Positions 22,981-63,621 of a stretch of DNA of 64,000 bases are shown one piece after another. The translations under genes were made by a program, and so were the position numbers. Within the stretch, counting starts at the first letter, position 1, and every line of letters starts with the position of its first letter. The notes below the pieces were generated by a model that was given only the letters and a program-made list of their open reading frames with translations, did no database searches and was not told the DNA's origin. This DNA comes from Eledone cirrhosa (taxonomy: Eukaryota): the NCBI GenBank assembly GCA_964016885.1, contig OZ024744.1:88288001-88352000 (forward strand). The letters run 5' to 3'.

Positions 22981-22997
22981 ATATATATATATATATA

Positions 22998-26800: not shown

Positions 26801-26804
26801 ATGT

Positions 26805-28055: not shown

Positions 28056-28305
28056 TCTTCTTTAAGTATCACTTTAGAAGGAGAATCAGGGTGGAGAGAG
28101 AGGCACTGCACCCCATTAAATTTACTGAAAGGTGGGTGAAAGAAGTAAAAATGGCCCGAGTGATTGGGCATTCTGTGTTTATAAGCCTGTAGGTTGAGGA
28201 AGAGAGCAAAAGGAAGAAAGGGGCACTTGCACAACACGCTCCTGGAGTTGAGTGTTGTTCTATCAACGAAGTATTAAACAACCCATTTGTGGTGCCTCCC
28301 CCCTA
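28056..28305 (+). mobile_element. Tx1 subfamily E 3' fragment flanked by (TATC)n
   Basis: FFKYHFRRRIRVEREAL...MARV*; 3'UTR matches 29880-29990. Confidence 0.85.
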
Positions 28306-28335
28306 TCTATCTATCTCTCTGTTTAAATGTCTATT

Positions 28336-28366
<31 letters not shown>

Positions 28367-28370
28367 TAAC

Positions 28371-30116
28371 TATAGGAGCCGTTTACAACCACGCGCTCCA
28401 TCCGATACGGATGAACTCTCTTCTCCATTCTATAGGTGCTGACTCTGGAGCCACTACTGCGGAAGTTGGAGCTGCTGCAGGGCATCCCGTTGGAACCGGG
28501 ACTGCGAAAAGCGGCGTCGGCTTATGCGGAGGAAGTGAAAATAATGGTGTCGGAAACCTCGGTAAACGGGGTGATCGGCAACTTACTGCAGGAATACGAA
28601 AGGCTCACAGGAGCAAAACTGAACCCGGACAAGTCTGTCGGTTTGCAACTCGGAACGTGGAGATGCAAACCGATGCCGTCCGACAACGTCGTCGGACGCT
28701 GGAAGGAGGGACCGGTGAAATTGCTCGGGGTCTGGTTCGGTCTAGACCTCCAGGTGGAGAAAAACTGGAACGAGGTCAAGGGAAAGGTATTTGCGCTCAC
28801 CCAGAAGTAGGCAGAGTGCAAACTATCCTTGAAAGGTCGAACGGAGGTGGCGAACACTTTCATAGCGTCCGTCATCTACTACCGCTTGACCGTCGTGCCT
28901 TGTCCCCGATGGAATGCATGCTCTTCCAGTTCCTTTGGAAGAAGCAGGCTCCACTGGTGAGGAGATCCGTCTGCTGTCAGCACTCTTCCAACGGAGGGCT
29001 TGGAATGCCGTGGGTGATGAGGCGCAAACTGCGCTGACGCTACCGCATCTACAGGTATTCTACACCGACCAACCGGTATGGGCACCGTTTGTGAGACAGG
29101 CCTTGCCGCAAATTGTCTCGCTGACGGAGCTGCAGTCCTGGGTCAAGCAGAGACCGAATAAGATGGGCGCCTGGCACATTGAATGCGCTCAGGCGCTCAC
29201 AGTCCTCTGTCAAGCGGGCAGGGCAATCAGTGGAGCTCCACTTCGACATTCTATAGAGGGTTAGTACGTCACAAGGGCGACAACGTGCTGGGAAAGACTC
29301 TAGGTGTTGAAGGCGACGAACTCACCAGTCCGTTTGGTAGGACTTTCCGCCCGGGACCCATGGACACCTTCCAGAGGTCCCTGGCCTGACAGTGCTACCG
29401 AGGAACACTACCAGTTCGAGATAAGATCTACAAGCACAGACGCCCCGGCAGGGATCCTTCCAAGAGGACGTGTCCAAGATGCGGGCAGGACATTGAAACC
29501 GTCTTGCATGCAACTGTACACTGCCCGGGCGTAACTGACCTGTGGAACTACGCAGAACAACTGCTGTCGTGTATAGGACAAATCCAGTTGACTGCCGAGT
29601 CCATAGTAAGGATCAAACCGCCAACTTCTTTCAAAAACGAAAGATAGGCGGTTTTCTACTGTATAGTGACTATGGTGAAAGAGGTTATATGGTGGACGAG
29701 ATCTGAAGACAGATGCCTTTCTCTCCGGACAACAACTCATTCCGTTCTTTAGGTACCACTTTAGAAGGATAATCAGGGTGGAGAGAGAGGCACTGCACCC
29801 CAGTAAATTTACTGAAAGGTGGGTGAATGTGGTAAAAATGGCCCGAGTGATTGAACCTTCTCTGTATATAAATCTGTAGGTTGAAGAGGAGAGCAAAAGG
29901 AAGAAGGGAGCACTTGTACAACACGCTCCTGAAGTTGAGGGTTGTTCTATCGACGGGGTATTAAACAACCATTTGTGGCGCCTCCTCCCTATTTGAGGAT
30001 TTCGATTGTTAAATTTGTTTGTTTCAATATTTTTACACGATTATATGTAAAATCATCGGCATGTGTCTTTGTTTCGTTCCCTTTCCTTGTGCGTCCTTGT
30101 GGCTAATAAAGAAATA
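28371..30116 (+). mobile_element. Tx1 subfamily E, 5'-truncated, disrupted ORF2
   Basis: LTLEPLLRKL, SAYAEE, LLGVWF, GGLGMPW, zinc finger; ends ccttgtggctaataaagaaat followed by atatctatct. Confidence 0.9.
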
Positions 30117-35699: not shown

Positions 35700-36282
35700 C
35701 CTTTAAGAATAGCGTCTCTTTTCACTGCACTAACGCTCATTATCAAATAGTACTTGAAGAAGCCAATGAAAGCTAAACTTTAGAGGAAATTCTTTTCCTA
35801 AACTGTTCAAATGCGCATGATACAATTTCGTCTGCCATCGCCAGCGGGCGGATGAAGGCTCCCTGTTCATTCTTCTCATTCTATGTCCGCCATTTTGCCT
35901 GTCTGTTTTTTCACTTTGGCATAATTTGTTTTATCCTTTTCCTTCTCCTTTTCCTTCGTGTTCAACCATATTTTTCTCTACTTGGGTCCAATTTTCATGA
36001 TAGATTAGGGTATCTACCAGATTCATTCACCATTCTCCATTAATTTCGCTTAAGGAAAGCATCTCTTTTTACTACACTAACGTTCATCATCAAATAGTAT
36101 TTGAAGAAACTGATGAAAGCTAAATCTTCTTTCCCTAAACTGTTCAAATGCGTCCATGACACAACTTAGTCTGCCACAGTCAGCGGGCAGATGAAGGCTC
36201 CCTGTTCATTCTTGCTGAAAGAATATGATGGGTCCAATTTTCATGATAACTTAGAGCGTCTACCATATTCGTTCACCATGTT
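35700..36282. repeat. diverged tandem duplication (35700-36035 / 36050-36282)
   Basis: Shared cactaacg..atcaaatagta..ctaaactgttcaaatgcg..gatgaaggctccctgttcattct..gggtccaattttcatgata. Confidence 0.85.
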
Positions 36283-36777
36283 CTGCATATACCTGAAAAC
36301 TAGCCATGCATAAATACTGAACGTGTGGTTGGATGAAGGTTTCGCTGCACCATACCCATTGCATGATTTATTCCGAATAAACAATTTATATTAATACTGC
36401 TAGATCACTGATATGTTCATAATCACGGACAAGAAAGCCGTGCAGTACAAATTACTTAGATTAACGGTACCGATGCTCAGAATTGTTTCCGAGTCTTCGT
36501 TACTCGTACACTGCATTGGCCCTCTATAAATGTCACGGATTAACGATAACCCGAGCGCTTTAACAAACTATTAAACTGTAGTAAGCACCTGGCAACATTG
36601 CAAGTCACAATTGCATAATATCGGTCTGCCCGCTCATGACCAGCGACTGAAACCCAAGCAAAGGGATGAAATGCTTAAAGATATATCACACTTTTTAAAG
36701 ATATATCGTTCTAAAGATATATCATTTCTTTTTGACGAATAAATGAGGTAAATTTTAACCTGTTAACTTACACTTCA

Positions 36778-36962: not shown

Positions 36963-37279
36963 CATATATATATCCAGGGAGTGTAACTTAAAGTTACTGT
37001 AGATTAATCCACGTGAGCAGTCGATGTATTATGTTCACGTCTGTAGCGAGGTGTAGAACTAAACAGAGTGTAAATATAATATTACAAGGACGATTTGTTA
37101 TGCCTTCATTACGTTTATTGATTAATTACAAGTGCAGAAGTCCGGTGAGATTTTGATTCCAGGGTCGGGCCCGATCGATACAGATCGTACCTTGAGCTCA
37201 TCAATAACGAAACGGGCGTTACCAATCGATAAACACAATGAAAGGATAACAAATCGTCCTTGTATTACTATTATTATTT

Positions 37280-37467
37280 GGATTGGCAGTATCGGTAGAG
37301 AGTCGGACGCCATTCTTTGACGCATGGAGTTACGGCCCTTGCCATTCTGAGTTCAAATCCCGCCGAGGTTAACTTTGCTTTTCAACCTTACGGGGTCGAT
37401 AAAATCAAGTACCAGTAATGTACTGGGTAATTGCTCGCCTTGTGCCAAAAGTAGAAACAATTATTAA
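37280..37467 (+). mobile_element. SINE at the head of the right array
   Basis: SINE body; its attatt tail runs directly into a Tx1 fragment. Confidence 0.9.
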
Positions 37468-38321
37468 TGGCAGTGCTACCGGGGGGGGGGGGGGGGGGGG
37501 GGCTCACTGTCAGTTCGGGATAAACTCTACAAGCACGGAATTGCTGTCAGACGGAACTGCCCATGATGCGCACAGAACGACGAAACCGTTCTGCACGCAC
37601 TTATCCGATACCCGTGCATTACTGAGGTATGTCGAACAGCTACTGTCGCGTATGGAACGAATCCGGCTATCGGCCGAGTCCATAGTGAAGATCGACCCGC
37701 CGCCTTCCTTAGGTCAGAAAGAGCAGGCAATGTTGCTCTGTCTGGTGACAGTTGCGAAAGAGATTATATGGTGGACCAGATTGAAAGGACTGAAGACAGA
37801 CACTTTTCTCTTCGGCCAATCCCTCGTCAACATCTTCAAGTTTCACCTGGAAAGGAAGGTGAGGGTGGAGAGAGAAGTGCTGCCCCCAGTACATTTGCTG
37901 AAAGGTGGATGAATGTGGCAAGAATGGCCCGTGTGAATGGGCCTACTCTGACCATGCACCTATAGGCTAGCTAACTTGAGGAGAGGGGTGCTCTCCTTGG
38001 GTGCCCTAGAAGCGCAGGGTGGTTCATGATTGGTGGGGTACCCGAGTCACCCCAGGGTCGTCCACCCCCTAGGGGGGAATTTATTTTGTTATATTTATGC
38101 ATAGTTTATTTTATATTTTCAATATCTTCATTGTTAAATTAGTCTTGGCATTGTGCACTTTTACTCGACCTTACTGTAAACTCCCACTGTCCCTGTCTTT
38201 GTATTGTCCTCTACATGTCGGCCCTTGTGGCTAATAAATGAAATCATTATTATCAGTATTATTGTCTCCTACATGTCGGCCCTTTTGGCCAATAAATGAA
38301 ATCATTATTATTATTATTATT
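37468..38321 (+). mobile_element. Tx1 subfamily D 3' fragment plus a re-copy of the terminal ~45 bp
   Basis: WQCYRG...TLTMHL*, 3'UTR, AATAAA, (ATT)n; terminal segment repeated at 38258-38321. Confidence 0.9.
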
Positions 38322-38329
38322 GTAGGTTA

Positions 38330-41320
38330 GGACCGGGTTACTGGAAGCTGAACATGTCATTTCCGGCACGTAAGGCTTACAGGGACCGAGTCAATAAGTT
38401 AGTTAAGCAAAAGTTGACAGGAGGGATCATAAACAACAGATGGTGGGGGGCTCTCAAAAGAGAGATTAGAGTAACTTCGATAGAGTTCAGCAAAGAACTA
38501 GCGTTAGAGAAAAATAGAAAGGAGGGGGAGCTGGTAGATAAGTTAGACGAGGCTATTTGTAGTGGCATCGCAACTGACGTGCTAGCGGCGAGAATGGCAT
38601 TAGACCATTTCTTCAATGCCAAACACGAAGGTTGCATTGTCAGAGCTATGGCGCGTGCGCTGAGAAACGAGGGAACTAAAGCTGTTCGATGGGCCCGCGT
38701 GGCGGAGGCGCAGCGTGGTAATAAAACCACAATTCGGTCTTTGGCGGACCGAGACGGACACGAGATAAGCGATTCCAAGCGGATGTGTGAGGCCTTTCGC
38801 CAGCACTTTGCTCGGTTGTTCGGGGAGAGTGGCGAGTCAGAGAGAGTAGCGGATTTCAGTCCCTACCTTGACGGCTTGCCGCGCATCTCGACGGTCGACG
38901 CTGAGCGCTGCGAAAGGCCGATTACTTCAGCCGAAATTCTTGACGCCCTTGTCGGCTGCATGAGGCGCAAGTCACCCGGCTTGGATGACCTGCCCTACGA
39001 GCTTTACGTAAATATGCCAGACTTGTTCTCCGAACTCCTCGAAGCACTCTACTGTAACTGGCAGCAGAATGGGAGTATTCCCAGTTCTGTGAGCAGGGGA
39101 GTGGTGACGCTGATAAGGAAAGACGAGAACAAGAGGGATACATTAGACAACTTCAGGCCCATAACTCTGCTCAACACAGAGTTTAAGATTTTGGCCAAGG
39201 TGTTAGCAAAGAGATTGGCGCTTGTCGTCGAGGATTTGGTTGGGGAGGCGCAAACTTGCGCAATCCCAGCCAGGTCCATATACGACAATCTCCACCTCAT
39301 GCGATACATCATAGAGAGGGTAGGGTGTAAACCTGGCTTCGGTGGGACACTGATCAATTTAGATTAATCGAAAGCATTCGATAGGGTCGACCATCGTTAT
39401 CTGGAGTTTGTCCTCAAAGCAGCTGGTTTCGGCCCTGCCTTTAGAAGCTGGATCGTTGCAATGCACAGCGGCACACGCTCAGTGGTCAAGGTTAATGGCC
39501 ACCTCTCGGAACCATTTCGGCTCTCGCGATCGGTCCGTCAAGAGTTCCCTCTCTCTTCCCTTCTGTACGTATTGACTCTCGAGCCTTTACTGCGGAAGCT
39601 GGAGCTGTTGCAGGGCATCCCGCTCGAACCGGGACGTGGAAAGGCGGTGTCGGCTTATGCGGAGGACATCACCGTGATGGTGTCGAACACCTCAGAAATC
39701 GAGGTGGTCGGCACCTTATTGAAGGAATATGAAAGGTTGACAGGAGCCAAACTTAACCCGGAAAAGTCGGTGGGCTTGCAGCTCGGAACCTGCAGAGGCA
39801 AGCCCATGCCGTCCAACAGCGTCGTGGGGCGCTGGACGGACGGACCAGTAAAGTTGCTCGGGGTTTGGTTCGGACCAGACCTCCAGGTGGAAAAGAATTG
39901 GGACGAGGTAACGAGCTGAGTATCCAGTCTCACCCAAAAATGGGCTGGGAGGAAGCTATCACTGAAAGGTCGCGTGGAGGTGGCGAATGCGTACATCGCG
40001 TCCGTCATCTATTACCGCCTAACCGTCGTGCCTTGCCCCCGTCCGCGCCTCGTCAAGTTGGAACGGCTCCTCTTCAAATTCTTGTGGAGGGGACAAGTTC
40101 CGTTGGTGAGGCGGTCCATCTGCTGCCAGCACCCTCTACGCGGAGGGCTGGGCATGCCGTGGCTAATGATGCGCAGATATGCGTTGAGGCTGCGACATCT
40201 CCAGATATTCTGCCTCAATGGTGAACAGGTGTGGTCGCCGTTTATCAGACGGGCCTTTCCACAGCTCATTTCTTTGACTGAGCTGCAGTCCTGGGTCAAG
40301 AAGAGACCGAGACTGGGTGACTGGCACCTGGAATGTTGCCAGGCACTCACTGCCCTCTACCAAGCGGGCAATGCGATCAGTGGAACTTCCACTCTCGAGT
40401 TCTATAGAGGATTAGTGGTGGGCAAGTGCGATGACGCACTCGGGGAAGCTTTGGGCCTCGACGAAGTCGAACTGACCAGTCTGTACCGGAGGACTTTTGA
40501 GCCGGGGACGATGGACAATTTCCAGAAATCCCTCGCTTGCCAGTGCTACCGGGGGGCACTGCCGGTTCGGGATAAACTCTACAGGCACGGAAGTGCTGTC
40601 AGACGGACCTGCCCAAGATGCGCACAGAACGACGAAACCGTTCTGCACGCACTTGTCCAATGTCCGTGCATTACTGAATGTGGAGTTATGTCGAACAGCT
40701 ACTGTCGCGTGTGGAACGAATCCAGTTATCGGCCGAGTCCATAGTGAAGATCGAGCCGCCACCTTCCTTAGGTCAGGAAGAGCAGGAAATTTTCCTCTGT
40801 CTGGTGGCAGTTGCGAAAGAGATTATATGGTCGACCAGGTTGAAAGGACTAAAGACAGACACTTTTCTCTTCGGCCAATCCCTCATCAACTTCTTCAAGT
40901 TTCACCTGGAAAGGAGGGTGAGGGTGGAGAGAGAAGTGCTTCCCCCCAGTACATTTGCTAAAAGGTGGGTGAATGTGGCGAGAATGGCTCGTGTGAATGG
41001 GCCTACTCTGACCATGCGCCTATAGGCTAGCTAACTTGAGGAGAGGGGTGCTCTCCTGGGTGCCCTAGAAGCGCAGGGTGGATCAGGATTGGTGGGGTAC
41101 CCGAATCACCCCAGGGTTGTCCACCCCCTATCGGGGAATTTATTTTGTTATATTTTGCATAGTTTATTTTATATTTTATATTTTCATTGTTAAATTAGTC
41201 TTGCCATTGTGCACTTTTACTCGACCTTATTGTAAACCCCCACTGTCCCTGTCTTTGTATTGTCCCCTACATGTCGGGCCTTGTGGCTAATAATTGAAAT
41301 CATTATTATTATTGTTATTT
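38330..41320 (+). mobile_element. Tx1 subfamily D, 5'-truncated at GPGYWKLN; near-complete RT to zinc finger with few lesions
   Basis: ORFs 38354-39367, 39461-39919, 39974-40744, 40678-41025; SAYAED; CPRCAQNDETVLHALVQC; (ATT)n tail. Confidence 0.95.
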
Positions 41321-41572
41321 GAATGGAAAACTGAGAGAGGGCGCTTGCCCTTGTGGTCAGGGTGGCTGTGGTCTTTTGTGTGGTTTTCGCCACGAGTGAA
41401 CATTGGAAGTTTCCCCCCTGTTGGGGAATTTTTGTTTGAAGTTTTTTAATACTTCTATATTCTTGTTATAACCTTTTTACAAGGCCTAAACCCACTTCGT
41501 ATCGTCCTGTATCATTCTGTCCGGTCTGTAATGTTTTTCTTCATGTTAGCCCCTGTGGCCGACAAAGAAACC
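41321..41572 (+). mobile_element. Tx1 subfamily B, 3'UTR-only fragment
   Basis: Matches the 3'UTRs of L1 and R4. Confidence 0.85.
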
Positions 41573-43053
41573 TTCGGAGCTAAATTCCAATTTGAACTTT
41601 GCATATAGCAAATAGGTCCCGCCAAAATAAACATAAAAAATAAAAATGACGTCATTCAAAAAATCTATTTCCATGCCATGTATTCACTCAAAAATTACCC
41701 ATTCAGCAAGATATCCTTCTCAGCCTTTTTCTTCGTCCAGCTGTCAGCGTGGGGCCTCGCTTTCCTTTTCGTCTTCTTCATCGTCTCATAGTGAAGCGAA
41801 TGCCACTCCTCTCTTTTCTCCATCAAGTAGCAGTCGTGAAGCGGCTACTGCTGATACATTTGACACATTTGACACAAAGAATCCAGCAATAGGCAGCGTG
41901 GTCTCGCTTTCCTTTTCCTCTTCTTCATTGTAAAATTCAGGCGAATGCCACTCTTTCCTCTTCACCAACGGCAGCCGTGAAGCAGCTACTGCTGATACAT
42001 TTGACAAGAAGGGAAATAGCAGCAGCAGCGGCAGTATTAGCAATAACACCTGTAGTAGCAGTAGTAGCAGCGGCAGTATTAACAATAACACCTGTACTAG
42101 CAGTAGCGGCAGCAGCAGCAACAACACCAACAACACCGTTTGTACCAGTGGGAACAACAAGACCAGTAGCAGCAATAGCGGTGGCAACAATGGCGCCACT
42201 GAAAAAGAGACCACCTCTTTTGCAAAGGTAACTTGCAAAGTAGAAACAATCAATCATGACCACAGAGGAGGAGATGGCGGTCGCAAGACACATGGTAACC
42301 AGAACTGAATTTTCAGTGTCCTTGAAACCACCAACCGACTTCCTGGAGGAACAAGAGCGACGCACAGTGTCATATCGCACGATTGAGACGAAATCGCGTC
42401 GTGTGGAGAGAGCCTCAAAGGCTCAAATCCAGAAGGCCTTGGGAACTGTGTGGGCACGGAAAACCCACATCACCCGTGGCAAGAAATATGCTACTGTGGA
42501 CGTCCTTTTTGCTACCTCCCAGGAAGCAGAATCGCACTCATTGAGGACCCTACGGAGTGATGACATAACGCTAATCCGTTTTACTGCGGGAAAAAAATTG
42601 TAAAGGTCAAGGTAACCCAGGTCCCACCTTACGTACCCGTGTCTTGGCTGGTCATGTCTGTTCTAGCGGGTATCGAAGATAAACCAACCATTCTGCAGGT
42701 ACAGAAGTTGGGGAGAGAGGACTGGTCCGGTATTGAAATGGAGATGCTTATCCAAACCGACCAGGACTGCATCAGCGCTATTCCCGACGTAATAGAGCTC
42801 GGGATTGGCTCCCAACTTCCCATATCTGTTGAAGGAAGGCGCCCAAAGTGCTTCAACTGTGGACCAAATTTCACCTCAGGGCTTTCTGCCCACAGAAAAT
42901 AACAAAGACCAAGGTCACCCTCCTTCCAACGCCGGAACGGCTGCCATCATAAACGGAGCAGTAAGCGAAAAAGTCGGGATCTTTTACAGAGAATGGTAAG
43001 ACAACCTCCGTGCCAGGAGCGGTAAACCAGGCTCCACCACCACCACCACCACC

Positions 43054-43085
<32 letters not shown>

Positions 43086-46000
43086 CAACAACAACAAAGA
43101 CAAATGAGAGGGTAGAACTCATAACCCTCCCCGACCTCTCTCAGTCGGATATGGAGTATGAGGCGGCTAGGGAGTAGAAAACGGTTATTATTTTAAAAAA
43201 AAACAATAAAAAAAACGAAAAAACACCACAGTTCCTCCCTCCAAAAGCGAAAACAAAGAAAGAAGACTAAAGATTGCGAGGTGACTTGCAGCAAAACCAC
43301 CAAAATCTCCATCACCACCAACAACAACCACACCACACCAGCAACACCAAAAACACCAACATCACAAACACAACAAAGCACACATACCCAACAGCAACAA
43401 CAAGAAAGCAGCAACATAACCACCCCTCCCCTCCCCCAAAAGTACACATCCATAAACATTGCACAGCAAGGACTAATGGAAAACATAAAACACCACACCA
43501 ATATTTCAGACGTAAATTACCAAACCCCACCAACACCCCACCAACACCAAGAACATTGTAGAAATTGAACTCGAAAACTACAAACAATTATAACAAAAAT
43601 TCACCAACGCAGTTGGGGATTTCAGGGGGTCACTCTCCAAAAGAATCTACAAAGATATCGTCTTGGAGCCACCCATGACCAGCCAAAGAGACGGTTCTAC
43701 TGTCACCACACGATCAGGGTAAGTGATCCTTTCTCACTTACCCCCTTTTTCATCCAACATGGCAGTACTTAGAATAGGCAGTATACATGTACGTTGCATG
43801 TGGTCATCTTGGAAGCAGGGTCACCTTCCCGACCACTTCAGGTCACTAAACATAGATGTGGTGGCCATCAGCCAGACCAGAATCTCCGAAGCACGAGCCT
43901 TCGCACCGATCTTCGGCGGCGACGATGTATACGCATCTCCCAGTCGTCCAGGATCGGGGGAGGGGTTGCCGTCCTTTTTCGGAGAGGCTTGGATCTCGCC
44001 ATACGGGCCATCTTCCTGGACCCAGAAGGTAAGTCGGTGGTGTGGGCGTGACCGGCAGTGAAGGTAATGCTTTCAGCCTAGTAGCCGTCTCCCCCCTAGC
44101 AGGGGCAGGACGGCCAGATTTCTTCAGACGTCTAGAGACCTTTCTTGGTACGTCCCGCTCCTTTGTATTAGTGGGCGACAGGAACGGTATCTTAGATGTA
44201 CGCTGGGATTATGTGGGGCTAGTATACAGGACAGGAGGGTGTAAAGGCCTCAACAACATGCTCAGACGTTTTGAACTGTCTGACAGGTATAGACTGAATT
44301 ATCTGAATGTGCCAATGTGGACATGTGCAAACCGCATCGGGTCATCCAGATCGTATTTAGATAGGGTATTCTGTAGGGAAACAGATAAGGCTAGTGTAAG
44401 TTGTCCAGAATTTGAAGTAGTCGACTACACGGACCACAAATTTATGACCTGTGGGATTGACTTAGATAGTCTCCATAGGCAAGGGCCCGGCTACTGGAAG
44501 CTGAACGCGTCTTTCCCGGCGCGCAAAGCGTACAGAGACCGTATTAGCGAATTAGTTAAGCGTGCGTTGACGGGTGCGATCGTCAACAACAGGTGGTGGT
44601 TTACCCTGAAAAGGGCAATTAGAGTAGAATCGATAAGGTTTCGCAAAGGAGTAGTGATAGAGGAAAATAGAGTAGAGGGAGAGCTAGTTAGAAAAAGAGA
44701 AGAGGCGTTTAGGACAGGCATCGCAACCGACGTGCTTGCGCCGAGATTGGCACTCGACCAATTCTTCAACACAAAGCATGAAGGAGGCGTTGTCAGAGCT
44801 AGAGCTAGGGGACGAAGACGTTCAAATGGGCCCCGGTGGTGGAGCCGCGACGTGGCAATAAGTCCACAATACGCACTTTGCCTGATCAAAATACGCGCAT
44901 ATTGCTCGAACCCGAGCAGATGTGGGCGACTTTTCAACAGCACTTTGCTCGATTGTTCGGGGGGCGGCGGCGGGAAGCATCTGAGTATGGATTTCGGTGC
45001 ATACCTCGACGGACTGCCGCGGCTGTCAGCGCAGTGCTGCGAAATGCCGATAACAGCAGGTGAAATACGGGAAGCGATGTCTTTACTGCACGAGGGGTAA
45101 ATCACCAGGATTGGATGGTCTACTCTACGAACTTTATGCGTACATGCCAGACTTGTTCGGCGACCTCTTGTCAGGTGTCTACTGCAACTGGCAGCAGAAC
45201 GGGAGCATTCCCAGTTTTGTGAACCGGGAGCGGAGGCGCTGCTCAGAAAAGACCCGAACAAAGAGGACGTTATAGACAATTTCAGGCTCATAACTCTGCT
45301 AAACACTGAGTTCAAGATTTTGGCCAAGGTTTTAGCAAAAAAGATTGGCGCTTGTCGTAGGTGATCTGGTGGGAGAGGCGCAGATATGCGACATTCCGGG
45401 CAGATCCATCCACGAAAACTCCATCTAATGCGATACATTATAGAGAGGGTGGTTAAGGAACATCGCACGGGTGGGACCCTGAGCAACTTGAATCAATCTA
45501 AAGCATTTGATATTGTCGACCATCGGTACCTGGCTGCGCACCTCGAGACGGCCGGCTTCGGGTCTGTTTTTAGAGGCTGGATCGCTAAGATGCATAGCAA
45601 GATCTGCTCGATTGTGAGGGTGAATGGTCACCTGTCGCAGCCGTTCAGCATCATGCGCTCGGTCCACCAAGGTTGTCCCCTCTCGTACCTCTTGTACGTA
45701 CGGGCCCTCGAGCCATTACTGCACAAATTGGAGACCATCAGGGGGGTGGGTACCTCGCGAACTGGGATGCGGGAGACCTGTGTCAGCTTACGCTGCAGTC
45801 CTGGATCAGGAAAAGACCGAGGGATAGTGCTTGGAAGCTGGAATATCTCCAAGCGCTCACCGCACTCTACCAGCTGGGCACTGATATCGGTGGAACATCC
45901 ACCTTGGCGTTCTATAGGAGGCTTGTGGAGTGGAAGAGCGACGATGTTCCTGGGGAGACCCTGGGCGTCAAAGACGATCAGCTGTTTTCTCTCTTCAAGA

Positions 46001-46739
46001 GAACTTTCAGTCCGAAGCCTATGGCCTACTTCCAAAATTCCCTGGCCTGGCAGTGCTACCGGGGAGAGTTGGCGGTTCGGGATAAACTCTACAGGCACGG
46101 AGGTGCTGTCAGCCGAGCCTGTCCGAGATGCGCGCAGGGCGACGTAACCGTCCTGCACGCACTCGTTCAGTGCCCGAGCATTGTTAACTTGTGGAGCTAT
46201 GTCGAACAGTTGCTGTCGCGTGTAAGACTGATTCGGTTATTGGCTGAGTCCGTTGTGCAGATAGCCTCGCCATCCTCCTTTAAAGAGGAGGAAGAGCAAG
46301 CAGTCTTCATCTACCTGGTGGCCATGACGAAAGAGATTGTGTGGTGGACAAGGTTGAAAGGGTTAAAGATGGACACTTTCCTCTCCGGCCAATCCCTGAT
46401 TAACTTTTTCAAGTTTCATTTGAAGAGGAAAATCAAGGTGGGAAGGCAAGTGCTATCTCCTAGTAAGTGGGTGAAAGTGGCGAGTCTGGTCCGAGTGAGT
46501 ATGAGTATGAGCCTGTATACTGAGGTGTGGGAAAACTGAGAGAGGGCGCTTGCTCTGGTGGTAATGGTGGCCGTGGTCTTTTGTGTGGTTTTCGCCACGA
46601 GTGACCCTTGGGTAAATTTGGTTGTTTTAATTTTAATTTATTTTACACGTTTCTGTCTTTTATAAGCCTTTTACACGGTCAAAACTGTGCCGCCTGTAAT
46701 GTTTTTCTTCATATTAGCCCATGTGGCCAATAATGAAAC
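41573..46739 (+). mobile_element. Tx1 subfamily B copy R4 (ORF1 about 41646-43726, ORF2 about 43759-46520), disrupted, internal RT deletion
   Basis: ITRGKKYATVDVLF, CFNCG; MAVLRIGSIHV; SYLDR; jump from SAYA to LQSW near 45792. Confidence 0.93.
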
Positions 46740-47867
46740 TACGTGGAGGGCTGGGCATGCCGTGGATGATGATGCGCAGACACGCGCTCTGGCTACGACA
46801 TCTCCACCTCTTCCTCGACGGTGATCAGGTGTGGTCGCCGTTTGCTAGACGCGTCTTTCCCCAGCTCGTCTCCTTGACGGAGCTGCAGTCCTGGGTCAAG
46901 CGAAGACCGAGAGGGAGCGCTTGGAGACTGGAATGTCTTCAGGCGCTAACAGCCCTCGACCAATCGGGCAATGTTATCGGTGGAAACTCCAACTTGGCGT
47001 TCTATAGAGGATTAGTGGAGGGGAAGAGCGACGACGTACTTGGGGAAACTCTAGGCGTCGACGAAAATCAACTAGCCAATCTCTTCGGAAGTACTTTCGG
47101 GCCGGGGCCTATGGACAACTTCCAGAAATCCCTGGCCTGGCAGTGCTACCGAGGAGTTTTGCCAGTTCGGGATAAACTCTACAGGCATGGAGGTGCCGTC
47201 AGCCGGGCATGTCCGAGATGCGCGCAGGGTGACGAAACCGTCCTGCATGCACTCGTCCAGTGTCCGAAAATTGCTGACTTGTGGGTTTATGTCGAACACC
47301 TGCTGTCCCGTGTAGGACGGATCCAGCTATCAGCTGAGTCCATCGCGAGGATTGCCCCGCCCTCTTCCTTTAGCCGGGAATGGCAGGCAGTTTTTATCTG
47401 TCTGGTGGCCATGGCGAAAGAGATAGTATGGTGGACACGTTTGAAAGGGCTGAAGACGAGCACTTACCTCTTCGGTGATGCCCTGATTAATTTTTCAAAT
47501 TTCATTTGAAAAGGAAAATCAGGGTAGAGAGGAAAGTGCTCTCTTCCCAGCATTTTGTTGAAAGATGGGTGAGAGAGGCAAGAATGGCCAGAGTGAATGG
47601 GCCTTCCCTGAGTATATGTCTTTAAATTAAAGGTGGAAAACTGGGAGAGGGCACTTGCCCTGGTGGTCAGGGTCACTGTGGGCTTTTAATGGGCTTTATC
47701 CACAAATGTCCTTCGGAAGTCTTCCCCCTATTGGGGAATTTTTCATTGTTATTTTTATTACATCCTCTATTTTTTTTTACACGCAGATATGCCCATTTGT
47801 ACCGTCCTGTATTGTCCTGTACTGTCCTTAATGTCTACTTTATGTAAACCCTTGTGGTGAATAAAGA
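46739..47867 (+). mobile_element. Tx1 subfamily C 3' fragment
   Basis: LRGGLGMPW...CPRCAQGDETVLH, type C 3'UTR. Confidence 0.92.
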
Positions 47868-48171
47868 TGCGCCTATAGGCTAGCTAACTTGAGGAGAGGA
47901 GTGCTCTCCCTGGGTGCCCTAGAAGCGCAGGGTGGTTCAGGATTGGTGGGGTACCCGAATCACCCCAGGGTCGTCCACCCCCTATCGGGGAATTTATTTT
48001 GTTATATTTATGCATAGATTATTTTATATTTTTATATTTTCATTGTTAAATTAGTCTTGCGATTGTGCACTTTTACTCGACCTTATTGTAAACCCCCACT
48101 GTCCCTGTCTTTGTATTGTCCCCTACATGTCGGCCCTTGTGTCTAATAAATGAAATCATTATTATTATTAT
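47867..48171 (+). mobile_element. Tx1 subfamily D, 3'UTR-only fragment with (ATT)n tail
   Basis: Near-identical to 41014-41310. Confidence 0.9.
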
Positions 48172-48920
48172 AGTTGCATTTATCTTGCTTTATGTTCATA
48201 CGAGTTATCACGAAGTCACAACCAGTGACCTCAAGAGACAACAAGGTCCGCCATGTTCAAGAAAGAACATACATATTCACACATGCATCTTTAGTGTTTA
48301 GACTTGTGATGTACTTATATTGACAGAATCTTCCTTAGTATATGGGCAGTTCCCATTAGTACTATCTTTTGTATTTCTCCTATACGCGGGTTTCCTGGGA
48401 TTTGCGATAAGTAATCATTAGACCCCTTAGGTATCATTCCCAGAGCGCCTACAACCACTGGTATTGTTTTAGTTCTCAATTTCCACATTTTTCCAATTTC
48501 TATCTCCAGGTCCTTATACTTGCTCAATTTTTCAAATGTTTTTATAGATACATTCTTGTCTATTGGAACAGACATATCAATTAGCAGGCATACCCTCTTT
48601 TGAAAGTCCTTCAATATTATATCAGGTCTGTTTGCATCTATTTTTCGGTCTGTTTGGATGCTAAAGTTCTACAAGATTGAGATGTGATCTTTTTCAAGTA
48701 TGGGAGGTGGTTGATGCTCCCACCAATTCTTTTGATGGGGCAGGTCAAAATGCTTACACATTATCCAATGTATGTATTGTGCAGCTCTGTCATGCCTGTT
48801 TAGGTATTCGGTTGGAGCTATAGGACTGCACATTGAAATTATATGGTCAATGGTCTCTGGTTGTTTTTTGCATACACGGCATAATGGGCTGCACCCATTT
48901 TTTATTATGTTGGCTTGGTA
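48172..48920 (-). mobile_element. R4/Dong-like RLE retrotransposon 3' fragment A
   Basis: CRVCKKQPETIDHIISMC (CCHC), RHD, NRPDII, IDMSVP, EKLSKY, PVVVGALG; (TAA)n tail. Confidence 0.88.
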
Positions 48921-49875
48921 CACAGCCCTCGACCAATCGGGCAATGTGATCGGTGGAAACTCCACCTCGGCGTTCTATAGAGGATTAGTGGATGGGAAGA
49001 GCGACGACGTACTTGGGGAAACTCTAGGCGTCGACGAAAATCAACTAGCCAATATCTTCGGAAGTACTTTCGGGCCAGGGTCTATGGACAACTTCCAGAA
49101 ATCTCTGGCCTGGCAGTGCTACCGAGGAGCCTTGCCAGTTCGGGATAAACTCTACAGGCATGGAGGTGCCGTCAGCCGAGCATGTCCGAGATGCGCGCAG
49201 GTCGACGAAACCGTCCTGCACACACTCGTCCAGTGTCCGAAAAATGCTGACTTGTAGGTTTATGTCGAACACCTGCTGTCGCGTTTAGGACGGATCCGGC
49301 TATCATCTGAGTCCATCGTGAGGATTGCCCCGCCCTCCTCCTTTAGTCGGGAAGGGCAGGCAGTTTTTATCTGTCTGGTGGCCATGGCGATAGAGATAGT
49401 ATGGTGGACACGTTTGAAAGGGCTGAAGACGAGCACTTACCTCTTCGGTGATGCTCTGATTGACTTTTTCAAATTTCATTTGAAAAGGAAAATCAGAGTA
49501 GAGAGGGAAGTGCTCTCTTCCCAGCATTTTGTTGAAAGATGGGTGAGAGAAGCAAGAATGGCCCGAGTGAATGGGCCTACTCTGAGTATATATCTGTAAA
49601 TTAAAGGTGGAAAACAGGGAGAGGGCACTTGCCTTGGTGGTCAGGGTCATTGTGGCCTTTTACTGGGCTTTCTCCACAAATGTCCCTCCGAAGTCCCCCC
49701 CCCCCCCCCCCTATTGGGGAATTTTTCATTCTTATTTTTTTGTTACATCCTCTGTTTTTGTTTTTTACACGCAGAAATGCCCATTTGTACCGTCCTGTAT
49801 TGTCCTGCACTGTCCTTAATGTCTACTTTATGTAAACCCTTGTGGTTAATAAAGAAATCATTATTATTATTATTA
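48921..49875 (+). mobile_element. Tx1 subfamily C 3' fragment
   Basis: TALDQSGNVIGG...TLSIYL*, type C 3'UTR, (ATT)n. Confidence 0.92.
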
Positions 49876-51024
49876 TCTGCTGTCAACACCCGCTACGTGG
49901 AGGGCTGGGCATGCCGTGGCTGATGATGCACAGACACGCGCTCAGGCTACGACATCTCCACCTCTTCCTCGACGGTGATCAGGTGTGGTCGCCGTTTGCA
50001 AGACGCGTTTTTCCCCAGCTCGTCTCCTTGACGGAGCTGCAGTCCTGGGTCAAGCGAAGACCGAGAGGGAGCGCTTGGAGACTGGAATGTCTTCAGGCGC
50101 TCACAGCCCTCGACCAATCGGGCAATGTGATCGGTGGAAACTCCACCTTGGCGTTCTATAGGGGATTAGTGGAGGGGAAGAGCGACGACGTACTTGGAGA
50201 AACTCTAGGCGTCGACGAAAATCAACTAGCCAATCTCTTCGGAAGGACTTTCGGGCCGGGGCCTATGGACAACTTCCAGAAATCCCTGTCCTGGCAGTGC
50301 TACCGAGGAGCTTTGCCAGTTCGGGATAAACTCTACAGGCATGGAGGTGCCGTCAGCCGGGCATGTCCGAGATGCGCGCAGGGCGACGAAACCGTCCTGC
50401 ACGCACTCGTCCAGTGTCCGAGCATTGCTGACTTGTGGGTTTATGTCGAACACCTGCTGTCACGTGTAGGACGGATCCAGCTATCAGCTGAGTCCATCGT
50501 GAGGATTGCCCCACCCCCTTCCTTTAGCCTGGAAGGGCAGGCAGTTTTTATCTGTTTGGTGGCCATGGCGAAAGAGATAGTATGGTGGACACGTTTGAAA
50601 GGGCTGAAGACGAGCACTTACCTCTTCGGTGATGCCCTGATTAACTTTTTCAAATTTCATTTGAAAAGGAAAATCAGGGTAGAGAGGGAAGTGCTCTCTT
50701 CCCAGCATTTTGTTGAAAGATGGGTGAGAGAAGCAAGTATGGCCCGAATGAATGGGCCTTCTCTGAGTATGTGTCTGTAAATTAAAGGTGGAAAACTGGG
50801 AGAGGGCACTTGCCCTGGTGGTCAAGGCCACTCTGGTCTTTTAATGGGCTTTCTCCACAAATGTCCCTTGGAAGTCTCCCCCCCCTATTGGGGAATTTTT
50901 CTTTGTTATTTTATTTCAACCTCTGTTTTTTTACACGCAGAAATGCCCATTTGTACCGTCCTGTATTGTCCTGCACTGTCCTTAATGTCTACTTTATTTG
51001 AACCCTTGTGGTTAATAAAGAAAA

Positions 51025-51081
<57 letters not shown>

Positions 51082-51091
51082 TATTATTATT
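49875..51091 (+). mobile_element. Tx1 subfamily C 3' fragment with open C-terminal frame and long (ATT)n tail
   Basis: ORF 49842-50780 open from ICCQHP to the stop; (ATT)n at 51026-51091. Confidence 0.94.
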
Positions 51092-52085
51092 GCTGTTCTT
51101 TGAGTCTCAGTCATTGATGTTAGTTAATTGGAAAGTTTGTTGAAATGAATATCAAGCCACTACCTGCAGCCTCAGACATTCAGGATGTATCGGAGGGTTC
51201 TTGCTGTTCCTAGCAAGCATGCCATTTGAAGTGTTCCAAAAAGTGGGGCTGGAATAATCTTCTTTAACCATCCTAGGAAACTCTTTGAGATAGTACCTAG
51301 TGCGCCTATGACAATCGGGACCACTTTGACTTCATGACAGTTCCAAATCCTTTTTACCTCCCACTTTAAGTCCTGGTATCGGTTGATATTTCCCCTCTCC
51401 TTTTCTTGCACTCTCGTGTCAAATGGGTAGGCTACATCCAAAATCAGGCACGATCTTTTTTCCTTGTCCAAAACTACCAGGTCAGGCCTATTGTGTTCTA
51501 ATTTCTTGTCCGTCTGTATCCTAAAATCCCATAGCACCTTCACCTGATCGTTTTCTATCACCGATTTTGGCTTATGCTCATACCACTTCTCAGAATGTGG
51601 TAAATTATTTACTTTGCATAGATGCCAGTGGATCACCTTGCCTATCACATCTTCTCTCTAGCCTTTATAGTGAGTCTGGGCTAGGTGTTTACACTCGGAT
51701 ACAATGTGAGCCACATTCTCCTCGCTCTCTCTCCACAGATCCTACACATTGAGCTATCTTCCTACTTGTCAATATGGTGTTTCACCCACTCCGTTCTGAG
51801 AGCTTGCTCTTGCGCAGCCATTAGCATTCCTTCTGTAGCTTTTTTAAGATCTCCTATTTTTAGCCAGTTCCATGTCTGTGGATCTCCGAATTCCGTTTTC
51901 TTAAAGGTGCTATAAAGGGATTTTTCATGAAGGATGCTCTTCCTCCCTGCTGTTATTTCCTTTTTGGACATCCCCTTGTCTATTGTCTTCTCCTTCAGTA
52001 CAATTTTGAGCATTGGCTCCCTACTGTCGGCCACATATTTGTACAGGTTGTTTTTATCCATCTGAACAGAGTCCTCTATGCTGAT
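51092..52085 (-). mobile_element. R4/Dong-like RLE retrotransposon 3' fragment B (different family from A)
   Basis: TEGMLMAAQEQALRT; VLWDFRIQTD, NRPDLVV, LDVAYP, PIVIGALG; (TAA)n tail. Confidence 0.88.
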
Positions 52086-53699
52086 AGACGATAAAAAGAG
52101 GGATACATTAGACAACTTCAGACCCATAACTCTGCTCAACACAGAGTTTAAAATTTTGGCCAAGTTGTTAGCAAAGAGATTGGCGCTTGTCGTCGAGGAT
52201 TTGGTTGGGGAACTTGTGCAATCCCAGTCAGGTCCATACACGACAATCTCCCCCTCAAGCGATATATCATAGAGAGGGTAGGGTGTAAACCTGGCTTCGG
52301 TGGGGCACTGATCAATTTAGATCAATCGAAAGCGTTCGATAGGGTCGACCATCGGTATCTGGAGTTTGTCCTCAAAGCAGCTGGCTTCGGCCCTGTCTTC
52401 AGAAGCTGGATCGTTACAATGCACAGCGACACATGCTCGGTGGTCAAGGTTAAGGCCACGCCATCGGAACCATTTCGGCTCTCCCGATAGGTCCGTCATG
52501 GGTGCCCTCTCTCTTCCTTTCTGTACGTATTGACTCTCGAGCCTTTACTGCGGAAGCAGACCTCCAGTTGGAAAAGAATTGGGGCGAGGTATCGAGCTGG
52601 GTAGCCAGTCTCACCCAAAAATGGGCTGGGGGGAATCCATCACTGAAATGTTGCGCGGAGGTGGCAAATGCTTACATCGCGTCCGTCATCTACTACTGGC
52701 ACCTGGAATGTTGCCAGGCACTCACTTCCCTCTACCAAGCGGGCAATGTGATTAGTGGAACTTCCACTCTCGAGTTCTATAGAGGATTAGTGGTGGGCAA
52801 GTGCGATGACGCACTCGGAGAAGCTTTGGTCCTCGACGAAGTCGAACTGACCAGTCTGTTCCGGGTGACTTTCGAGCCGGGGACGATGGACAATTTCCTG
52901 AAATCCCTCGTTTGGCAGTGCTAACGGGGGGCACTGCCGGTTCGGGATAAACTCTACAGGCAGGGAAGTGTTGTCAGACGGACTTGCCGCCCTAGATGCG
53001 CACAGAGCGACAAAACCGTTCTGCACACACTTGCTCAGTGTCCGTGCATTACTGACTTGTGGAGTTATGTCGAACAGCTACTGTCGCGTGTGGAACGGAT
53101 CCGGCTATCGGCCGAGTCCATAGTGAAGATCGACCCCCCGCCTTACTTTGGTCAGGAAGAGCAGGCAATTTTCCTCTGTCTGGTGGTAGTTGCGAAAGAG
53201 ATTTTATGGTGGACCAGACTGAAAGGACTAAAGACAGACACTTTTCTCTTCGGCCAATCCCTCATCAACTTCTTCAAGTTTCACCTGGAAAGGAAGGTGA
53301 GGGTGGAGAGAGAAGTGCTGCCCCCCAGCACATTTGCTGAAAGGTGGATGAATGTGGCGAGCATGGTCCGTGTGAATGGGCTTACTGTGACCATGCACCT
53401 ATAGGCTAGCTAACTTGAGGAGAGGGGTGCTCTCCCTGGGTGCCCTAGAAGCGCAGAGTGGTTCAGGATTGGTGGGTACTCGAGTCAACCGAGGGTCGTC
53501 CACCCCCTATCGGGGAATTTATTTTGTTATATTTATGCATAGTTTATTTTAGATTTTTATATATTCATTGTTAAGTTAGTCTTGGCATTGTGCACTTTTA
53601 CTCGACCTTATTGTTAACCCCCACTGTCCCTGTCTTTGTATTGTCCCCTACATGTCGGCCTTGTGGCTAATAAATGAAATCATTATTATTATTATTGTT
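52080..53699 (+). mobile_element. Tx1 subfamily D, 5'-truncated, two internal deletions
   Basis: DNFRPITLLNTEFKIL; jumps near 52557 and 52696; type D 3'UTR and (ATT)n. Confidence 0.92.
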
Positions 53700-53905
53700 A
53701 GATTGGCAGTATCGGTAGAGAGTCGGACGCCATGCTTTCCAGTATAGTTACGTCCCTTTACGATCTGAGTTCAAATCCCGTCGAGGTTGACTTTGCTTTT
53801 CATCCTTACGGGGTCGATAAAATAAAGCACCAATAATGCACTCTGTGTAATTGCTGGCCTTGTGCCTAAAGTAGAAACAATTATTATTATTATTGTTATT
53901 ATTAT
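53700..53905 (+). mobile_element. SINE closing the right array
   Basis: SINE body with (ATT)n tail. Confidence 0.9.
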
Positions 53906-55836: not shown

Positions 55837-56338
55837 TATTAGATGATAGATTCTAGATTCTAATGCTAATATTAGGCACTAGGTTGTTAAATGTCATAGG
55901 TGGGTGGCAGGTTCCTCTGTTAATAGATTTTAGCCTTTCATTCGATCTATGGTAGTTGACGTCAAGAAGATCTGCGTTAATGAGGTTCGTGTCTAGTGCG
56001 ATCTTAACCCCTTACGAAACCTATCTAGTGTGTGTCCGTTGCTGTTGTGTGCTAAAGAAAGAATATCGCCGCGATATAGGCCAACAGTGGGGTTGGGCCA
56101 ACAAAATTACATACATCAGCGCTGTCATAGGACCCCAGTGATGAAATTACATTGTCTAGGTATGTCCCTGGGTACTACTCAGAAATCAGAACACGAACAC
56201 ATATATATTCACCATATCCCAAGACAAGTAATTGCAAATGTTTTTGCTTTACAAAATATGTATGGATTTCCGTATTAATATCGAAATCTTCGGCCATTTT
56301 ACTTTACAACTAACTATCTTTCTCCATTATTTAGAGAA

Positions 56339-56516
56339 GCAGTATCGGTAGAGGGTCGGACGCCATGCTTTCCAGCATAGTTACGTCCCTTTACGATCTG
56401 ATTTCAAATCCCGCCGAGGTTGACTTTGCCTTTCATCCTTACGGGGTCGATAAAATAAAGTACCAGTAATGCACTGGGTAATTGCTGGCCTTGTGCCTAA
56501 AGTAGAAACAATTATT
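56339..56516 (+). mobile_element. SINE with 13-bp TSD
   Basis: attatttagagaa on both sides. Confidence 0.92.
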
Positions 56517-57297: not shown

Positions 57298-58017
57298 AGG
57301 ACGGTGGATCGGCGGTATAGGTAGAGGGTCGGACGCCATGCTTTTCAGCAGAGTTACGTCCCTTTATGATCTGAGTTCAAATTCCGCCGAGGTTAACTTT
57401 GCCTTTCATCCTTACGGGGGTCAATAAAATAAAGTACCAGTCACGCACTGGGGCCGTTTTAATCGCCCCCCCCCCCCAATTAATGTCCTTGTGCCTAAAT
57501 AAGAAAGCATTATTTATCTCCTTCAGGACGGTGGATTAGCAGAATCGGTAGAGCCCCGGACAATATGCTTTGCAGCATAGAGTTACGGCCCTTTTCGTTC
57601 TGAGTTCAAATCCCGCCGAGGTTAGCTTTGCTTTTCATCCTTACGGGGTCGATAAAATAAAGTACCAGTAATGCATTGAAGTCAATTTCATCGACTATCC
57701 CCTTCTCTTCAAATTGCTGACTTTGTACCTAAATCAGAAACCATTATTTATCTCCTCCTTAATGCACTGGGTAATTGCTGGTCTTGTGCCTAAAGTAGAA
57801 ACAATTATTTATCTCCTCCTGTGGATTGGCAGTATCGGTAGAGGGTCGGACGCCATGCTTTCCAGCATAGTTACGTCCCTTTACGATCTGAGTTCAAATC
57901 CCGCCGAGGTTGACTTTGCCTTTCATCCTTACGGGGTCGATCAAATAAAGTACCAGTAAGGCACTGGGTAATTGCTGGCCTTGTGCCTAAAGTAGAAACA
58001 TTTATTTATCTCCTCCT
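57298..58017 (+). mobile_element. array of four SINE copies
   Basis: Each copy is followed by an (att)atttatctcct(c/t)c motif. Confidence 0.92.
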
Positions 58018-59574: not shown

Positions 59575-60560
59575 ATGATGGCTTCCCCCTCGATATCGAG
59601 TATGGTCATTGCACGATATAACATTATTAACAATTATCGGTGGTGAATTGGCAGTATCGGTAGAGGGTCTGACGCCATGCTTTGCAGCAAAGAGTTACGG
59701 CCCTTTATGGTCTGAGTTCAAATCCCGCCGAGGTTAACTTTGCCTTTCATCCTTACGGGGTCTATAAAATAAAGTACCAGTAATGTACTAGGTAATTGCT
59801 GGCCTTGTGCCAAAAGTAGAAGCAATTATTAAAAATTATCAATTAATACTATCATGATTTTTTTAAAGTGAGGAAAGACTGTGCACTAAGCGACAGTAGC
59901 TATAACCCGAAAAGAAGAAAAGATCAACATCATGGGTAACTACTGAGCCGCAGGTGTTATGTGGGAGTTATCCCAGTTTTATCCCAGTTTCATACATACG
60001 TACATACGTACGTACATTGTGGCTGCCCCCTCGATATAGAGTATGGCCATTGCACGATATACCATTATTAATAATTATTAATTAGTTCTATCTTGCAATG
60101 CCTGTGCTTGAAGATATTTTTTAAAGTGAGGAAAGACTGTGCACTGAGCCAATCCCACTCTCTGAGCGACAGTAGCTATAACCCGAAAAGAAGAAAAGAT
60201 CAACATCATCAGTAACTACTGAGCCGTAGGTTTTATATCGGAGTACATACATACATACATGGTGGCTGCCAACTCGTTTTCGAGTACGGTCACTACTTTA
60301 TATCCATGAAGGAGAACCCCTACCGATGCGCTGAACGAGTGTGACTTTTTAGTCCAGCCAGCGACTTGAAAACTCTGGTACAAACACTACACTTACGACA
60401 ATTATTGACACATATTGCTGAGCCCTTGGTACCATGTGACGACAAGTGCAGAGAGATCTCCAGATATAAAGCAATGCCTGTGCCGTGAAGCTTTTATAGT
60501 GAGCAAAGGCACTGCACAAAGCCAGTCCCACTCTCTTAACCAAGATGATATTTACCAAAT
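59575..60560 (-). mobile_element. head-to-tail RTE-derived elements (two family 2, one family 1) separated by (CATA)n; SINE inserted at 59638-59830 (+)
   Basis: Homology to 25150-26800; units end in ggcagccac/gaagccatc-type termini plus (GTAT)n on the minus strand. Confidence 0.7.
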
Positions 60561-63432: not shown

Positions 63433-63621
63433 ATTGGCAGTATCGGTAGAGGGTCGGACACCATGCTTTGAAACAAAGAGTTACAGCCCTTTATGGTCTG
63501 AGTTCAAATCCCGCCGAAGTTAACTTTGCCTTTCATCCTTATGGGGTCGATAAAATAAAGTACCAGTAATACACTGGGGTAATTGCTGGTCTTGTGACAA
63601 AAGTAGAAACAATTATCATTG
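63433..63621 (+). mobile_element. SINE with TSD attatcattg
   Basis: Main SINE family; flanking repeat on both sides. Confidence 0.88.

Follow-up and report, generated by a model that had tools for sequence, protein, structure and literature searches.

Long interspersed nuclear elements (LINEs) that insert into simple repeats have been described in two separate clades. Dong elements of the R4 lineage (Bombyx mori Dong, DongAg and DongBg) target TAA microsatellites (PMC3812793), and are classed there among the APE-type elements but elsewhere with R2 and R4 (PMC3774820). Several Tx1 families likewise target microsatellites, including Kibi at (TC)n, Koshi at (TTC)n and crocodilian families at (TTCC)n and (TTTC)n, and tandem copies at such targets have been interpreted as sequential insertions (PMC4494074). 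In octopus genomes, Dong-R4 and L1-Tx1 elements are each plentiful and were active recently (PMC13282606; PMC8967140). Here we examine 64,000 nucleotides (nt) of the genome of Eledone cirrhosa (GenBank assembly GCA_964016885.1, contig OZ024744.1, positions 88,288,001 to 88,352,000 of the forward strand; hereafter the window, with positions counted from its first letter), in which two Dong-like fragments each stand head to head with a Tx1-like LINE between runs of the repeat ATT.

This arrangement recalls the twin priming of L1, reportedly described by Ostertag and Kazazian in 2001. Twin priming and its two-template form leave head-to-head products of reverse transcription at one site, with outward tails and microhomology at the join, and the units in the window resemble them in orientation and tails, with microhomology at one of their two joins. 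Unlike the published cases, which involve the L1 ORF2 protein with one RNA or with L1 plus a passenger RNA, the units here pair elements that come from different clades and are both autonomous; and while those cases have been proven by flanking target-site duplications (TSDs), cell experiments or orthologous timing, the present units are known from sequence alone. A second comparison is offered by truncated R2 and R1 copies in Drosophila, whose joins are similarly variable (precise, with microhomology, or with deletion of upstream target), although overlaps there span 1-5 nt (PMC2718515), whereas one junction in the window has an overlap of 6-7 nt with an adjoining 6-nt gap. A literature search whose coverage excluded most subscription papers returned no account of Dong-Tx1 head-to-head units or of a Tx1 family targeting (ATT)n. 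It found no case of twin priming on two RNAs from different clades, of which preprint supplements, also outside its coverage, may hold closer examples, and the available part of PMC5786205 makes no mention of Tx1 or octopus.

An initial annotation of this DNA had proposed that each pair arose when both strands of a single break primed reverse transcription on two different RNAs. We describe the two units, their junctions and their setting, and argue that each pair is probably the outcome of two ordinary, sequential target-primed insertions into an ATT/TAA microsatellite used from opposite strands.

Two Dong-Tx1 units in one tandem array

Both units have the same architecture, namely (ATT)n, a reversed 3' fragment of an R2/R4-type element, a 5'-truncated Tx1-like LINE, and (ATT)n. 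Because tblastn with 4/28 relatives as queries finds only these two Dong-like fragments in the window, two of two fit this architecture, which bears out what the initial annotation had stated. Its further claim that different families are involved also holds: the two fragments share 39% amino acid identity and have no blastn match to each other, and their Tx1-like partners (Y3 and X4) are 76% identical in nucleotides, placing them in different subfamilies. What the annotation overlooked is that the ATT run on the left of each unit belongs, as its tail, to another Tx1-like copy (X3 for the first unit, Y4 for the second), and that a common tandem array houses both units.

The first unit (48158-49876) opens with an ATT run (48158-48171) that is at once the plus-strand tail of X3 and, on the minus strand, the 3' end of Dong-like fragment 1. 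Fragment 1 (48172-48920, minus strand), recognized from its translation, contains a CCHC knuckle and a nuclease region, one in-frame stop and a 3' untranslated region (UTR) of ~143 nt, and has relatives of up to 72% amino acid identity. Its partner Y3 (48921-49859, plus strand) appears to be joined bluntly at its 5' end and carries an ATT tail (49860-49876, plus strand), retained before the head of Y4, a 5'-truncated Tx1-like copy that lies between the two units (49877-51025, plus strand; zf-RVT, PF13966, E=2.7e-8).

The second unit (51026-53696) begins with an (ATT)22 run (51026-51091; Tandem Repeats Finder (TRF), period 3, 22 copies) that forms the tail of Y4 on the plus strand and the (TAA)n 3' end of Dong-like fragment 2 on the minus strand. 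This 5'-truncated R2/R4-type fragment (51092-52085, minus strand) matches residues 855-1158 of P0001, a full-length relative bearing a reverse transcriptase (RT), at 60-69% amino acid identity by tblastn. It comprises the end of the RT thumb region, the CCHC knuckle, a PD-(D/E)xK-type nuclease region and an 80-nt 3' UTR, and is damaged by two in-frame stops and one frameshift near 51727. At the junction (52080-52086), 6(-7) nt can be read both as Dong on the minus strand and as Tx1 on the plus strand, followed by a 6-nt gap in Tx1. The partner X4 (start ~52087, 52087-53681, plus strand) is 5'-truncated inside the RT and ends in an (ATT)5 tail (53682-53696, plus strand), after which comes the head of a short interspersed nuclear element (SINE). 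X4 has four multi-nucleotide deletions, namely this 6-nt gap and further ones of 7, 277 and 306 nt, and all four fall in the 5' 620 of its 1600 nt (52086-52696).

The array itself (37279-53905, plus strand; 16.6 kb) is gap-free and consists of a SINE, nine Tx1-like copies, the two Dong-like fragments and a further SINE, with elements abutting at ATT runs, as established by self-BLAST, a tblastn map and a junction table, segment ends being placed by inspection. Among its members, X2 (38324-41313, plus strand) is the sole same-subfamily reference that spans the second junction (position 39109), and is flanked by a 14-nt repeat extending 2 nt beyond the ATT units, which is likely a TSD. X3 (47867-48157, plus strand) retains only the 3' 290 nt, and its head is joined to copy Y2 with loss of the ATT run. 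On the minus strand, ~3840-18180 is occupied by a second array, in which three full-length Tx1-like copies each begin directly after an ATT run. The window as a whole is AT-rich, microsatellite-rich DNA, and the closest source-named matches of the Tx1-like ORF2 come from Argonauta hians (69% over one third of the query) and Octopus bimaculoides (77% over 18%).

The labels Dong and Tx1 are putative and rest on domain content, on motifs and on the tails. In fragment 1 the motifs C-x2-C..H-x4-C, RHD and PD..D..K can be read, and in fragment 2 the same with a frameshift and some changes; these we take to be the CCHC, RHD and PD-(D/E)xK motifs, on which the assignment of the fragments to Dong/R4 rests. 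With Dong elements the fragments share the C-terminal CCHC knuckle, the restriction-like nuclease region and, in two of two, the (TAA)n 3' end, and their relatives have a single open reading frame (ORF) with an RT and R2 proteins as nearest matches in PDB. P0001 in particular matches RVT_1 at E=7.6e-24 and R2 chains best in PDB, the RT being absent from both fragments themselves. Neither of two fragment-2 pieces nor a piece of the candidate ORF1 has a Pfam match; no named R4/Dong sequence occurs among the protein matches, those in the Atlas being unnamed eukaryotic clusters; and an Rfam scan of 37000-60000 gave no match, the Dong 5' ends, where an HDV-like ribozyme would lie, being absent from the fragments. 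Full-length B. mori Dong has TAA repeats upstream as well (a primer in PMC3774820), unlike the copies here, both 5'-truncated, where (TAA)n flanks the 5' end in 0/2.

For the Tx1-like elements, sister copies match PF03372 (APE endonuclease, E=2.5e-11) and PF13966 (C-terminal zinc domain, E=2.7e-8), as well as PF00078 (RT) as a partial domain at E=8e-5, below the curated cut-off, and relatives of their ORF2 carry all three domains (APE, RT, zf-RVT). An ORF1 candidate (16794-17474) shows a C-x2-C-x4-H-x4 motif by eye and no Pfam match; a zinc knuckle distinguishes the ORF1 of Tx1 from the coiled-coil ORF1 of L1. None of the ORF2 relatives matched is named Tx1; the label comes from the initial annotation, and we assume that it is apt. 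The elements resemble microsatellite-targeting Tx1 families in these three domains and a repeat tail, and in simple-repeat insertion, tandem stacking and a likely partner SINE (PMC4494074), but differ in that their repeat is (ATT)n, the complement of the Dong target, which gives two clades one landing site.

A shared microsatellite and two unlike junctions

The tails of the Tx1-like copies consist of (ATT)n, and the 3' end of each Dong-like fragment, in two of two, of (TAA)n. These are opposite strands of one repeat, and it is because the two elements use opposite strands that the Dong fragments appear reversed. A Dong element landing in the run of a Tx1 tail is therefore antisense, tail to tail with the Tx1 copy upstream and head to head with the next element. 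Runs of at least three ATT/AAT units number 18 in the window, against 3.4 expected from a first-order Markov model (maximum 8 in 30 trials), and 13 of the 18 lie, by inspection, at the ends of Tx1, SINE or Dong elements. Six of 16 runs without Dong precede a Tx1 head, which gives p=0.14-0.18 for both Dong copies facing one. Of the Tx1 heads without Dong in the two arrays, 7/10 follow ATT units and three (41572, 46740 and 47867) directly follow a Tx1 3' end where the run would be, with overlaps of 1-2 nt; loss of the run in 2/2 Dong-facing heads versus 3/10 others is not significantly different (Fisher p=0.15). This count scores copy X1 (37467) as having kept its run, though it has two units only, and leaves aside a decayed stretch at 36067-36627 and two Tx1-like pieces at 28054-30100, which lie outside any ATT array and have inexactly placed 5' ends; both pieces lack a run, and counting them gives 5/12. 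The positions 41572, 46740 and 47867 connect four successive Tx1-like copies without an ATT tail, a pattern that could have come about by loss of target or by serial jumps from one RNA template to the next.

At the second junction, letters 52080-52085 encode Ile-Ser in the Dong frame, the opening of the I-S-I-E-D that trails GGRG[L/M] in relatives, and the same letters match the Tx1 reference X2 at 39109-39114, the next 6 nt of Tx1 being missing. The initial annotation had given these letters (52080-52086), the reference near 39109 and the missing 6 nt correctly. Its reading of gctgat(a) as fitting both elements stands for the first six letters; the seventh (52086) would be compatible with Dong only if the preceding Leu codon were CTT. 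Among 300,000 random joins of both sequences, a match of at least 6 nt occurs within 10 nt of the join with p=0.0027 and within 20 nt with p=0.0048; the statistic was picked after the data were seen and two junctions were looked at, which brings the overall value to about 0.005-0.01. The 6-nt overlap is thus probably real as judged from this comparison, and another parse is possible, in which Dong extends to 52085 and Tx1 starts from 52086 with a 1-nt overlap. The first junction (48920/48921) is different. Its Tx1 side is blunt against both sister copies, so that microhomology is not confirmed as common to both units, and on its Dong side an overlap of 3-4 nt would need a Val before the first residue, which is found in 7/116 relatives and in 0/15 of the closest. 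Microhomology is therefore demonstrated at one of two junctions, with an overlap that may be 6, 7 or 9 nt at the second and 0 or 3-4 nt at the first. No near-identical Dong relative was found in searches that spanned longer proteins or 50% representatives.

Private substitutions amount to 3.9% in X4, 3.8% in X1, 3.4% in Y3, 2.4% in Y4 and X2, and 2.1% in Y2; X3 has 1.4% over a shorter stretch, on which X4 has 2.4%. The two partners Y3 and X4 are the most privately diverged members of their subfamilies in the array, though not significantly so (p=0.27 and 0.55). Fragments 1 and 2 contain 1 and 2 stops, as against 0.88 and 1.48 expected at the Tx1 mean of 3.0%, corresponding to ages relative to that mean of 1.14 (0.03-6.35) and 1.35 (0.16-4.89). 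The ages of Dong and partner are compatible and their point estimates match, but with one and two stop events the test has no power. The comparison of partner ages by which the initial annotation had hoped to judge its proposal hence neither refutes nor supports it, the intervals being very wide. Dating Dong by changes at conserved residues failed because lineage differences swamp decay: no relative exceeds 64-69% identity over the compared stretches, and of the 135 relatives used for fragment 2, about 118 belong to the fragment-1 type. No TSD is found outside the ATT runs, where the longest common word is 4 nt at both units (a TSD inside a run would be invisible). Among full-length SINEs in the window, 7/11 have a flanking word of at least 9 nt in common, two of the seven in simple repeats, compared with 14/110 mismatched pairs.

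Probable sequential insertion and its rivals

Under sequential insertion, the first element would have entered at an ATT/TAA run by target-primed reverse transcription, presumably following a nick there. The 5'-truncated cDNA of the later element would then have been joined to its neighbour, bluntly at the first junction and through the 6-nt microhomology at the second, and the few leftover repeat units may have been lost in the joining. What the window displays in favour of this course is the architecture, the common repeat, the use of opposite strands, the stacking of elements and the loss of the run at other heads. Comparable joins are known: 5'-truncated R2 copies mostly show microhomology of 1-5 nt, often with deletion of upstream target (PMC2718515; PMC3774820), and truncated L1 copies show target deletions of 0-20 bp with microhomology (PMC11702581). 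In Octopus vulgaris, near-full-length Dong-R4 copies are abundant, with 1129 recent insertions (PMC13282606, Table 1), and Dong can therefore complete insertion alone. That Dong came second, into a Tx1-run-Tx1 sequence, is slightly favoured over Tx1 coming second into a run beside a Dong head; the high private divergence of Y3 and X4 leans, without significance, towards partners that were present before Dong. The initial annotation had itself named a Dong insertion with target deletion as the simpler alternative, and once widened to either order this fits at least as well as a single event and has a much higher prior.

Several observations weigh against sequential insertion. For two Dong elements at random runs of the window, the probability that both face a Tx1 head and both lose the run is roughly 1-2% (about 0.14-0.18 multiplied by the square of about 0.3), a figure of our own arithmetic that is eased by the fact that the window was chosen for this pattern; twin priming yields the pattern without any deletion, and the window has no partnerless Dong copy as a control. 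Y3 and X4 have no TSD at the 5' end, while X2 appears to have one and the 7/11 full-length SINEs do. The 6-nt overlap exceeds both the 1-5 nt of R2 and the 0-2 nt of other Tx1 heads here, the Dong age estimates (1.14x and 1.35x of the 3.0% Tx1 mean) match the partners, and the clustering of the X4 deletions towards its 5' end could mean that this end was cDNA when the join formed.

The main rival is the proposal that each unit is one event of twin priming on two RNAs. A staggered cut in an ATT run would leave a left end with ATT-3'OH and a right end with AAT-3'OH. A Tx1 RNA, paired through its (AUU)n tail, would be the template for the right end and a Dong RNA, paired through its (AAU)n tail, that for the left, the two cDNAs then being joined head to head; the enzyme would be one RT, in that case likely the Tx1 ORF2 protein acting in trans, or both. 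The scheme predicts run, reversed Dong, Tx1 and run, with no repeat between and no deletion, and both fragments fit it in their opposite orientation and outward tails; each end of a cut run can pair with one of the two tails, Tx1 or Dong, the overlap at the second junction is above chance, and the ages are compatible. The idea is not new, as two-RNA twin priming has been published for human L1. Nine two-transcript insertions, in both orientations, were seen in cells beside 99 L1 and 235 pseudogene insertions, those in opposite orientation being ascribed to the joining of two RT-extended ends (PMC11702581), and the human germline has chimeras in which L1 is joined to antisense tRNA, 5S, Alu or mRNA sequence (bioRxiv 2025.02.02.635956), as tumours have two-tailed L1 bridges (bioRxiv 2024.08.27.596794). 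Yet such cases account for no more than a few per cent of insertions when L1 is overexpressed, and a single enzyme family is at work in them, whereas here the RNAs of two unrelated clades must twice, within 3 kb, have met at a single break, in four different families altogether, and the Dong RNA must have had a (UAA)n tail. The first junction appears blunt, no TSD lies outside the run (longest common word 4 nt), the orientation is explicable without a special mechanism, and microhomology, which every model predicts, is present at one of two junctions with an unexplained 6-nt gap. The geometry is coherent, but nothing in the window requires it, and we regard this origin as unlikely. The more general form, in which complementary tails let APE-type and restriction-like endonuclease (RLE)-type elements co-insert often enough to account for both Dong copies, is likewise doubtful; in that form the two RNAs could arrive already paired by their tails.

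The run may instead have been intact after separate insertions and removed later, with both heads trimmed and microhomology used at the second junction. Internal deletions are indeed frequent, X4 having lost 277 and 306 nt and large gaps occurring in the copies at 7893-12800, 12905-17999 and 41573-46739, and the 6-nt overlap fits microhomology-mediated deletion. Such deletion must have struck both junctions, however, and those internal deletions of X4 that were inspected show overlaps of 1-2 nt only, while Y3 has no large internal deletion; this course of events seems improbable. Still harder to credit is a template switch, by which Tx1 reverse transcription jumped to a read-through transcript of another array (Tx1, run, antisense Dong) and the upstream Tx1, the reversed Dong and the partner arrived as a single cDNA. 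The four successive tail-less copies are what serial jumps could yield, and sense transcripts of such arrays would include antisense Dong. Against this, the window has no second block of Tx1, run and Dong, an earlier ordinary Dong insertion elsewhere is still required, and X3 and Y4 are if anything younger than Y3 and X4, though not significantly. Three further possibilities were set aside. An assembly artefact is barely credible, as members of one subfamily differ from each other by 4-8%, no N occurs in the window and both joins lie inside reading frames; a functional fusion gene is ruled out by the opposite strands and by stops and frameshifts in both partners; and classical twin priming on one RNA is ruled out by the inverted part belonging to another clade.

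Neighbouring repeats and implications

A SINE of 190 nt with a tRNA-like head and an end of ATT units occurs at 53697-53885 (plus), 56338-56516 (plus) and 22996-23175 (minus), and in ~15 more copies or pieces; its middle resembles what we take to be a Meta domain. The last 25-30 nt are common to the 3' ends of the Tx1-like LINEs (for four Tx1 ends, between 0 and 16 of 2000 shuffles attained the local score), and this shared end suggests that the SINE and the Tx1-like LINE are likely a partner pair. Five SINEs (19312-19491, 26198-26377, 56338-56516, 57829-58008 and 63437-63616) have flanking direct repeats of 10-16 nt that start with ATTA or TTAT and extend into unique sequence; the machinery therefore makes TSDs, and a short ATT seed suffices. 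At 57298-58008, four SINE copies or pieces stand in tandem with the same short flanking word between them.

In the three full-length Tx1-like copies on the minus strand (17999, 12802 and 7892), G is the first base right after the ATT run in all three, as expected if a 5' cap had been copied, and their three 5' UTRs differ. The 3' end of X1, including its tail, is duplicated in tandem at 38202-38323 (58 nt). A further Tx1-like subfamily at 28054-30100 (plus), made up of a short 3' piece and then a longer copy, lies in (TATC)n/(TC)n without an ATT tail and possibly has a different target. The decayed stretch at 36067-36627 (minus) shows weak similarity to the C-terminal part of the Tx1-like ORF2 (23% amino acid identity, E=1e-5). 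Other repeats include a direct repeat of 367 nt (2972-3338 and 3441-3806; 98.6% identical), followed by a short re-duplication that cuts off the minus-strand Tx1-like copy near 3840, and a dispersed repeat of 310-370 nt at 25149-25516, 26434-26804 and 60244-60559, with copies 94-96% identical and two of them inverted within 1.7 kb.

On the reading that we favour, two site-preferring LINE clades and a SINE accumulate in one microsatellite from opposite strands, which accounts for kilobase arrays in repeat-rich genomes of the mollusc type. The head-to-head arrangement is then likely to be mostly ordinary, a result of insertion at different times, and head-to-head fusions in such genomes are weak evidence of single events. 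A Tx1-like group targeting (ATT)n, with its own SINE, looks like a modest addition to the known targets. If twin priming were nevertheless true, two-template priming would reach beyond human L1 to germline events that involve unrelated clades, there would be a sequence rule, complementary tails, for when such priming occurs, and natural events in the thousands would become available for the study of second-strand priming, a step of target-primed reverse transcription.

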